Source: Candidatus Gastranaerophilaceae bacterium
GTDB taxonomy: Bacteria > Cyanobacteriota > Vampirovibrionia > Gastranaerophilales > Gastranaerophilaceae
Assembly (NCBI GenBank): GCA_051874955.1
Contig: JBJEGJ010000055.1
Location: forward strand, 127,094-191,093
Direction of reading: 5' to 3'
DNA length: 64,000 nucleotides
This document shows positions 28,479-29,238 of this stretch, in pieces; the stretch's first letter is position 1, and each line of letters opens with the position of its first letter. The notes below the pieces were generated by a model, which saw nothing but the letters and a program-made list of their open reading frames with translations, did not search any database and was not told where the DNA came from. Both the position numbers and the translations under genes were made by a program.

Positions 28479-28505
28479 TAAAGTTTTTTAATTTTATGCC
28501 GTATA
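28479..28505 (+). promoter_or_regulatory. Sigma-28 (FliA)-type promoter
   Basis: TAAAGTTT (28479-28486), an 11-nt spacer, then GCCGTATA (28498-28505). Established consensus: TAAAGTTT-N11-GCCGATAA. The architecture is the same as at 51798. Confidence 0.6.
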
Positions 28506-28626
28506 ATGTCATGTATGTAAAAAAGACCTATATTATTAAGAAATATTACAAATACATACAAAAACTATCAATTTGTTTGTAGATGTTGTTTTTAAATACA
28601 TGTAGGTCCAAAGTGTAAGGATTGTC

Positions 28627-28899
28627 ATGTTTCGAGAAACTCTGGAACTATACTACAAGAGAATCTTAGATTTCTTGATTTATACAAAAAACTATTTTAT
28701 TAGAAAAAGTCCGGTTCAGGCAATGGCTAATTCAGTAGTTGAAGGAATAAAAGATTTTCTTACAATACGAAAGAAATTAAAAATGGCACAGTACAGGCTT
28801 AATTACCACAGGTACCAGTTAAACAAGATGGAACAATTGATTGCCGAGAACAGCCAACATAATTTCTTAAAAGGTGCAAACTTAGACCAAAAAAGGTAG
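28627..28899 (+). CDS. Small helical hypothetical protein (90 aa)
   Basis: AAGGA RBS 8 nt upstream. First gene after the sigma-28-like promoter. The segment FLTIRKKLKMAQYRL weakly resembles the family N-terminal motif. Confidence 0.55.
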   Translation: MFRETLELYYKRILDFLIYTKNYFIRKSPVQAMANSVVEGIKDFLTIRKKLKMAQYRLNYHRYQLNKMEQLIAENSQHNFLKGANLDQKR

Positions 28900-28905
28900 G
28901 AAAAA

Positions 28906-29238
28906 ATGGGTTTATTAATTGCAATAATGAGAAAACGTGAACTCCGGAAGTTAAAATCTAACGCGGAATGGCAGTTGCATTTAATAACTCAATCCGTACA
29001 CGCAACCCAAAAGTCTAATAATGACCTTCTTCAAGTGGGGACAAATTACGAATCTGATAGCGCCTTATCAAAGAAATTACAACAGCGACAATATAAATTA
29101 AAGATATTAGAAGAAAAACTTAACGAGAGAAAAGCTGCTATTGAAGTCCAAATTAAAGAATACACGGAAGAAATGCAGTCTTGTCAATCTATGATTGATG
29201 CACATATTAAAGATATGTTCTCCTATAATATATCATAG
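28906..29238 (+). CDS. Minimal (110 aa) member of the MGL...RK..E(Y/W) conserved-termini family
   Basis: An ungapped N-terminal alignment to 36571/51872 products matches MGL, R9, L13, KSN-E(W/Y), I27, Q29, A33 and L41. The C-terminal heptad pattern EEM...I...I...F is shared. Confidence 0.6.
   Translation: MGLLIAIMRKRELRKLKSNAEWQLHLITQSVHATQKSNNDLLQVGTNYESDSALSKKLQQRQYKLKILEEKLNERKAAIEVQIKEYTEEMQSCQSMIDAHIKDMFSYNIS

Follow-up and report, generated by a model that had tools for sequence, protein, structure and literature searches.

A conserved sigma-28-type promoter upstream of a two-gene operon in a Gastranaerophilales gene cluster

The operon and its promoter

In a 64-kb stretch of DNA from a Candidatus Gastranaerophilaceae bacterium (hereafter the window; G+C content 34.8%), two small genes follow each other closely on the forward strand, encoding basic proteins of 90 amino acids (aa; 28627-28899, +; isoelectric point (pI) 9.9) and 110 aa (28906-29238, +; pI 9.0), and they are preceded by an element resembling the promoters of the sigma-28 class. 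This element occupies positions 28479-28505 (+) and consists of a -35 box, TAAAGTTT (28479-28486), an 11-nucleotide (nt) spacer (28487-28497) and a -10 box, GCCGTATA (28498-28505); from its position, transcription would be predicted to start at about 28512, which would give the mRNA a 5' untranslated region (5'UTR) of approximately 115 nt. An initial annotation, made from the sequence of the window alone, had described the element as the second copy of a promoter found in front of a gene for a 682-aa protein (51798-51824, +; TAAAGTTT at 51798-51805, an N11 spacer, and GCCGTAAT at 51817-51824), matching it at 14 specified positions with identical spacing, and all of these coordinates agree with the sequence.

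The same annotation took the promoter to drive a two-gene operon, and this is well supported by the organization of the genes, which are separated by only 6 nt carrying a Shine-Dalgarno sequence. The proteins of the window match metagenome-assembled genomes (MAGs) named Melainabacteria, Gastranaerophilales or 'Cyanobacteria bacterium SIG26'; for comparison, a species scan with one genome each gave 41 loci encoding the 110-aa protein, to which additional loci from metagenomes were added. Wherever a locus reaches upstream of the 110-aa gene it contains the pair, in the same order and a few nucleotides apart; this holds for 44 of 45 loci, the remaining one (L045) ending inside the 110-aa gene. 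Homologues of the 90-aa protein form 521 clusters; among the 120 listed, a length of exactly 90 aa is found in 118, and no name goes beyond 'hypothetical protein'. The 110-aa protein has 68 clusters, nearly all of the query length. Since their homologues keep a constant length, both small open reading frames (ORFs) can be considered real genes. Across the species loci the 90-aa protein is 72-93% identical to that of the window, with the C-terminal 45 residues almost invariant, and the 110-aa protein is more variable (49-79% identity). The 90-aa protein has no relative in Pfam, NCBIfam, PHROGs, PADLOC or the PDB, and Pfam, NCBIfam, PHROGs and PADLOC returned nothing meaningful for the 110-aa protein, the Pfam and NCBIfam scans of both being read down to E<=1; profile searches of the PDB with alignments of the two families gave coiled-coil noise only.

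Conservation of the promoter element

Within the 64 kb, the pattern TAAAGTTT-N11-GCCGTA, with its 14 specified positions, occurs exactly twice, at 28479 and 51798, and both matches are intergenic, lie on the sense strand and face the downstream gene. One could nevertheless ask whether the motif recurs by chance and has no functional connection with the small ORFs. None of 100 dinucleotide shuffles contained an exact match, but when two mismatches were allowed, 15 of the 100 reached two matches, so that this statistic is weak; moreover, the pattern was defined post hoc, and the independent and decisive evidence is therefore its conservation in orthologues. In an alignment of 41 distinct sequences, each comprising the 190 nt 5' of a 90-aa gene, we found the motif in 40, at 144-157 nt from the ATG of that gene. 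This effectively refutes the chance reading, the probability of which we regard as negligible.

The alignment also reveals which parts of the element are kept. In the -35 region (octamer TAAAG(T/A)TT) the TAAAG core is found in all 40 orthologues and the preceding T in 39, and in the -10 region the dinucleotide CG is found in all 40, preceded by C in 37 (nCCG). The spacer is N11, as in the window, in 37 cases and N12 in the other three; N11 between the octamers corresponds to the 15 nt that separate TAAA from GCCG in sigma-28-dependent promoters. Of the 240 alignment cells for the six bases 3' of the CCG, 232 are A or T, without a fixed register: CCGT occurs in 28 of the 40 orthologues and CCGA in 12, eight of which read CCGATA, and the exact textbook sigma-28 -10 sequence, GCCGATAA, is found in two. 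The resemblance to the FliA promoters of tar, tsr and flxA in Escherichia coli, defined by chromatin immunoprecipitation (ChIP; PMC4183435; see also PMC2859248), is close: these read TAAAGTTT-N11-GCCGATAA, and thus have the same -35 octamer, 11-nt spacer and GCCG core. They differ in that most copies described here read CCGTA rather than CCGAT, that the targets here are not recognizable flagellar genes, and that a 17-bp palindromic box, described below, stands alongside.

The motif is also specific. In the 864 kb of related DNA on which all specificity counts are based, TAAAG-N14/15-CCG(A/T) has 36 intergenic matches, all but one of which lie 5' of 90-aa genes or of a gene of the 682-aa family. 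The promoter of the 682-aa gene is itself kept in four distinct orthologous upstream regions (L046, L047, L048 and L049; the region of L051 is identical to that of L048), and a further orthologue, L050, has TCAAGTTT with a 12-nt spacer. In L013 an extra family paralogue of 581 aa (7892-9634 of that locus) is inserted between the 110-aa gene and the neighbouring gene for a 229-aa protein, and carries its own promoter, TAAAG-N15-GCCGATAA, with a perfect -10.

In the window, the promoter lies about 30 nt 3' of a terminator-like hairpin with a T run (28424-28458, +; hairpin 28424-28448) that closes a gene for an RpoD-type (group 1/2) sigma-70 factor (27411-28427, +; Pfam regions 1.2, 2, 3 and 4, and NCBIfam RpoD models). 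The placement just after the rpoD terminator, as initially described, is therefore correct for the window but particular to its lineage: no other locus has the RpoD-type gene in front of its 90-aa gene, which places that gene outside the unit. In most species the promoter is preceded by the terminator of a gene for a 271-aa protein, strong hairpins being found in this position in L001 and L007, for example, and in L006 (Zag_111) the promoter faces a divergent prs gene. The promoter is a self-contained unit, which accompanies its gene whatever lies upstream, be it the 271-aa gene terminator, rpoD or prs.

The initial annotation had pointed out an alternative, namely that the hexamer TATAAT at 28502-28507, overlapping the -10 region, makes this an ordinary sigma-70 promoter, whose sigma-28 likeness would be incidental in an AT-rich genome. 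The hexamer is indeed present, TATAAT-like hexamers are found near the element in several orthologues, and a gene for a 350-aa protein discussed in the next section has clear sigma-70-like signals, including ..CGTATAAT. However, TATAAT itself is not conserved in the orthologues, and at 17-nt spacing it would pair with TAAAGT, which agrees with TTGACA at only two of six positions; a scan for sigma-70 promoters did not report this pair. The features that are invariant across the 40 orthologues, CCG and TTAAAG, are not those of sigma-70, and since the bases that follow CCG vary freely between A and T without a fixed register, TATAAT is not what selection preserves. The sigma-28 reading thus fits better, as first suggested, and we consider an ordinary sigma-70 promoter to be improbable.

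A minimal member of a large protein family

The second protein of the operon had been proposed to share its N-terminus and C-terminal heptads with much larger paralogues. Two of these are encoded in the window: a 'core' member of 350 aa (35519-36571, -), 6 kb from the operon and inverted here, and the 682-aa paralogue (51872-53920, +), which has a variable middle and its own sigma-28-type promoter. What these two have in common is confined to ~45 residues at the N-terminus and ~50 at the C-terminus. When the 350-aa protein was used for an exhaustive search, 1,733 representative clusters were retrieved at 50% identity; the best 150 of these range from 215 to 1,074 aa, and most match at both termini separately, while close relatives of full length align over the whole sequence. 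Of the best 150, nearly all start with MG(M/L)AASQAR..L.ARK.N.EY.GQQ.NQ and end with ..LDTEQ.A..TEMDAV.KVI.KN.E..FKTF. No Pfam or NCBIfam model covers the family, as judged from scans of the 350-aa and 682-aa proteins, and PHROGs and PADLOC likewise gave nothing meaningful.

The N-terminus of the 110-aa protein, MGLLIAIMRKRELRKLKSNAEW, fits the family motif MG[LM]...R..L...K[ST]N.E[WY] from residue 1, and its extreme C-terminus fits E..M.....I...I....F..[FY]. In a direct BLASTP comparison with the 350-aa protein, residues 1-33 match with an E-value of 0.02. A far stronger signal was obtained with hhalign, when an alignment of the 110-aa family was compared with a profile that joins the first 55 and the last 62 residues of 139 family members: the match covers residues 1-106 with a probability of 95.4% and an E-value of 1.8e-8, compared to 0.034 for a reversed profile and 0.004 for the best of 22 column shuffles. 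With the halves swapped, the C-terminal half alone still gave an E-value of 1.1e-5. The families of the 90-, 229- and 271-aa proteins showed no relationship to the family termini or to one another by the same method (best E-value 0.0075). These profile comparisons identify the 110-aa protein as a genuine, if minimal, member of the MGxAASQAR...FKTF family, consisting of the terminal helices only, and the proposed kinship with the large paralogues holds. The AlphaFold2 (AF2) model of the protein agrees with such an architecture, predicting a hairpin of two helices (residues 2-47 and 52-106; pLDDT 81), for which Foldseek found only generic hairpins in the PDB (best E-value 0.1).

In the AF2 model of the 350-aa protein (pLDDT 91), an N-terminal helix (residues 2-46) and a long C-terminal helix (residues 274-349, 76 residues) enclose a beta-rich middle. 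A Foldseek search of the PDB with this model gave no significant match (best E-value 0.36, TM<=0.19), although flagellins, FlgL or a hook-filament junction complex account for nine of the ten chains ranked highest. This likeness to flagellar axial proteins, drawn from a predicted model, appears to be one of architecture only. A match in a viral library to phage PA14 or tail proteins (E-value 8.6e-4, TM 0.14) was judged not meaningful, and a sequence-profile search of the PDB with the 350-aa alignment returned coiled-coil noise only.

The large paralogues and the core gene differ in their upstream regions. That of the 350-aa gene (36572-36830, -) contains conserved sigma-70-like elements, ..GTATAAT and TTGACT-N17-ATTATA, and, about 200 nt upstream, a conserved block CAGAAACATAAAAAAACTGTAAAGTTTTTA which includes TAAAGTTT; a sigma-28 promoter for this gene was considered but rejected, as this copy of TAAAGTTT has no CCG -10 partner. 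Going by these upstream signals, the variable large paralogues (the 682-aa gene here, the 581-aa gene in L013) are driven by the promoter type of the 90/110 operon too, and the 350-aa core gene would be under sigma-70-like control instead.

The gene cluster and its flagellar neighbourhood

Two further genes accompany the operon and the core family member, neither with a match to a known family. A convergent gene for an acidic protein of 229 aa (29244-29933, -) always adjoins the 110-aa gene and is syntenic in nearly all loci, and a gene for a Gly/Ser/Thr-rich protein of 271 aa (34685-35500, -) always lies 3' of the 350-aa gene. The 271-aa protein is 83-92% identical to that of the window in the species loci; it has one hydrophobic, glycine-rich segment near residue 170, and the weak hhalign value of 0.0075 quoted above belongs to its C-terminus, compared with the family C-terminus. 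The order 350aa-271aa, terminator, promoter, 90aa-110aa, convergent 229aa is found in 33 of the 41 species loci, the others being truncated (four) or rearranged (four), and on this distribution we regard the five-gene order 350aa-271aa / 90aa-110aa / 229aa as the ancestral cluster. The small proteins thus adjoin a 350-aa member in 33 of the 41 loci, and the co-occurrence with the large family across genomes, on which the initial annotation had staked its proposal, is indeed observed. In the clade of the window, the 350-271 pair is inverted or moved; in the window itself it lies beyond an amylase gene.

In 31 of the 41 species loci, a block of flagellar export genes comprising fliE, fliF, a fliG-sized gene, fliH and flhA is found within 10 kb, beginning 2-6 kb past the 110-aa gene. 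The block ends at flhA, as seen in L036 and L040, and a fliA gene sought 3' of flhA in these two loci was not found. The clade formed by L003, L031, L033 and L034 is without the flagellar block and has kept both the cluster and the promoter. Extending both ends of the window through identical proteins brought no flagellar genes into view. Among the loci, L032 (contig CAVAPR010000003.1) is labelled Candidatus Methanomethylophilaceae archaeon, and as it contains the whole Gastranaerophilales cluster together with flagellar genes, it is probably mis-binned.

A 17-bp box and a conserved leader

A second signal accompanies the promoter, in the form of a near-palindromic box of 17 bp, TATTAAGAAATATTACA (28534-28550, +), 29 nt 3' of the -10, which is a candidate site for a regulator. 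Its consensus is T(A/G)T(A/T)A(A/C)GAAAT(A/G)TTACA (TRTWAM-GAAAT-RTTACA), and the window contains two copies only, the other, TGTAACGAAATGTTACA (51764-51780, +), being placed 18 nt 5' of the -35 of the 682-aa gene promoter. In the related DNA, 44 copies lie 5' of 90-aa genes, two lie 5' of 682-type genes, and none lies elsewhere. The position of the box, 3' of one promoter and 5' of the other, suggests that one DNA-binding factor may repress one of them and activate the other. We also considered that the box could form an RNA hairpin, and rejected this, as changes in one half-site are not compensated in the other.

Between the box and the 90-aa gene (28560-28626, +) lie the conserved blocks AAAACTATCAAT and TTGTTTTTAAATACATGTAGGTCCAAAGTGTAAGGA, including a Shine-Dalgarno sequence, which are near-invariant in 33-41 species; the stretch ATGTTTTTAAATAYATGTAGGTCYAAAGTGTAAGGA, up to the start codon, likewise belongs to a 5'UTR that is nearly invariant over its ~115 nt. 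Rfam gave no match in the 5'UTR or anywhere in the window, and since RNAalifold predicted a weak structure (-3.7 kcal/mol) with no covariation, an explanation by RNA structure was dropped. The 5'UTR of the 90/110 operon may be a protein-binding leader, either CsrA-like or autoregulatory. Near the start codon the 5'UTR carries two GG-containing motifs, GTAGGTC and TAAGGAG.

Which sigma factor reads the promoter

Taken as a whole, the findings are best explained if the element at 28479-28505 functions as a promoter of the sigma-28 (FliA/SigD) class, serving a two-gene module linked to the large family, and we hold this with reasonable, though far from complete, confidence. The promoter would then be read by a sigma factor of the FliA family, whose holoenzyme would recognize TTAAAG at -35 and nCCG(T/A) at -10 and begin transcription near 28512. 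As in the flagellar late promoters of the sigma-28 class (FliA/SigD/WhiG), the genes concerned lie near flagellar export genes, and copies of the promoter stand before several genes of one family.

Several observations weigh against this interpretation. The -10 of the window, GCCGTATA, agrees with GCCGATAA at only five of eight positions. When FliA/SigD was searched for by tblastn, only the RpoD-like gene was matched, and neither the window nor 56 further loci yielded a sigma gene of the FliA family. The clade of the window (the window, L005 and L006) lacks an adjacent fliE-flhA block, and relatives of this lineage have been reported with incomplete flagella (PMC4040986). Neither small protein matches FlgM, FlgN, FliS, FliT or FlaG in Pfam or NCBIfam at E<=1, and the family has neither a Pfam match to Flagellin_N/C or Flg_bb_rod/Flg_bbr_C nor a PDB sequence match or significant fold match. 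Apart from these points, the tblastn scan of the window and the loci was also made for CsrA and flagellin and found neither, and the supplementary tables of Di Rienzi et al. make no mention of fliA, flgM or fliS.

The published record on flagella in this group is mixed. Full sets of flagellar genes, along with canonical flagellins, are reported for some gut Melainabacteria (PMC3787301), and many Gastranaerophilales, including the koala-gut lineage, have partial sets only (PMC4040986; PMC5877343). Complete sets are reported in ~25% of the genomes, the others keeping export genes 'postulated to be involved in extracellular secretion' (10.64898/2026.04.24.720558).

It is conceivable that the promoter is read by some other alternative sigma factor of the Melainabacteria, either cyanobacterial group-3/SigF-like or specific to the lineage, which has a sigma-28-like specificity and no flagellar connection. 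The persistence of operon and motif in lineages without an adjacent fliE-flhA block, the roughly 75% of Gastranaerophilales genomes reported to lack complete flagellar sets, and the T rather than A that follows CCG in 28 of the 40 orthologues all speak for such a factor, but the close agreement with the FliA/SigD consensus in both elements and in their spacing, and an ancestral location adjoining flagellar export genes, make it doubtful in our view. Group-3 sigma factors belong to a clade related to FliA/SigD, and this alternative is therefore only narrowly distinct from a FliA-family reader.

Possible roles of the operon

The operon encodes the basic 90-aa protein and the 110-aa helical hairpin, and is a terminator-insulated module of the five-gene cluster, predicted to be transcribed separately; if a FliA-family factor does read the promoter, it would be the late module of this cluster. 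The two helices of the 110-aa protein might pair with their homologues at the ends of the large members, which would make the protein a minor, adaptor or capping subunit or else a partner in assembly; the 90-aa protein might be an obligatory, conserved cofactor or regulator, and the 17-bp box would add a second, opposite-acting layer of control. We infer that the operon is a late accessory module, of the sigma-28 class, of a protein family linked to flagellar export. These roles of subunit, adaptor or partner for the one protein, and of cofactor or regulator for the other, are offered as suggestions.

The initial annotation had been reminded of the flgMN and fliS types of small-protein operon, and one could accordingly propose that the two proteins have no structural role but are functional analogues of FlgM/FlgN or FliS/FliT, serving the large paralogues as anti-sigma factor and export chaperones. 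As regards the layout, the resemblance stands: as in the flgMN and fliDST late operons, small helical proteins are encoded in a short operon behind a sigma-28-type promoter. The small proteins are also basic (pI 9.0-9.9), in contrast to the acidic large members (pI about 4.4); conservation as extreme as that of the 90-aa protein points to a partner that is itself conserved; and mimicry of the family termini by the 110-aa protein would suit a chaperone or decoy. The proteins themselves, however, have no sequence relationship to those of flgMN or fliDST, and given that neither has a match among these families or in the PDB, the analogy is one of layout only. FlgM proteins are typically poorly conserved and disordered, in contrast to the basic and nearly invariant 90-aa protein. 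Known export chaperones are, to our knowledge, unrelated to their clients, whereas the 110-aa protein is homologous to the large proteins that would be its clients. We therefore find it rather unlikely that the operon encodes regulators and chaperones of this kind.

One could also speculate about the large family itself, and propose that the MGxAASQAR...FKTF proteins are unrecognized flagellin-like substrates or subunits, exported via the flagellar type III apparatus, which most Gastranaerophilales keep even where their flagella are incomplete, with the 90/110 operon supplying a minimal adaptor or cap and a dedicated cofactor or regulator; in that case the 17-bp box or the conserved 5'UTR could be bound by the 90-aa protein. 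This is a tentative proposal, which we would not favour at present. Like flagellins and other axial proteins, the family has conserved terminal helices, a hypervariable beta-rich insert and many paralogues, with lengths from 110 to >1000 aa, sigma-28-type control and a location next to fliE-flhA. It differs from flagellins in that its N-terminus is conserved from residue 1, and canonical flagellins have been reported separately in flagellated Melainabacteria (PMC3787301). If the proposal is true, what gut Melainabacteria keep as partial flagellar sets would have been repurposed for secretion or for an appendage, with a cargo family of its own.

The Gastranaerophilales are related to the Cyanobacteria and widespread in the gut, and the literature raises the question of what role their retained export genes have (10.64898/2026.04.24.720558; PMC4040986); in the literature searched we found no work with a cultured member. 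The locus connects a flagellar late-gene promoter type, an unannotated family of about 1,700 clusters (at 50% identity) whose architecture is flagellin-like, and the fliE-flhA genes, and so offers candidates for what the export apparatus builds or secretes. The promoter and the 17-bp box together form a defined regulatory code that can be searched for in MAGs and metatranscriptomes. In the literature searched, in which no paper deals with both Melainabacteria and FliA, we found no description of a sigma-28-type promoter in this phylum, and should the flagellar link fail, the locus would still be a clean case of the conservation of such a promoter there. The promoter can thus be considered a new member of a well-known class, and it is the link of the family to flagellar export genes that is new within the databases and literature searched.

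Other features of the window

The 1.2-kb gap 5' of the 682-aa gene contains a small XRE-type helix-turn-helix ORF of about 70 aa (50690-50902), and several REP/MITE-like hairpin repeats (GATCCTGAA..TTCAGGATGACAAACGCG) are found 5' of the same gene at 51080-51720; neither is conserved 5' of the 682 orthologues. At 56474-58088 (-), a membrane protein of 302 aa and an OmpA-domain protein of 231 aa form a pair, and an identical copy on another contig has a precomputed Pfam match to ZorA-like_t1 (PF28082), so that this may be a Zorya-like or stator-like pair. Two long ORFs, of 788 aa at 6606-8972 (-) and of 589 aa at 59525-61294 (+), have no Pfam match.

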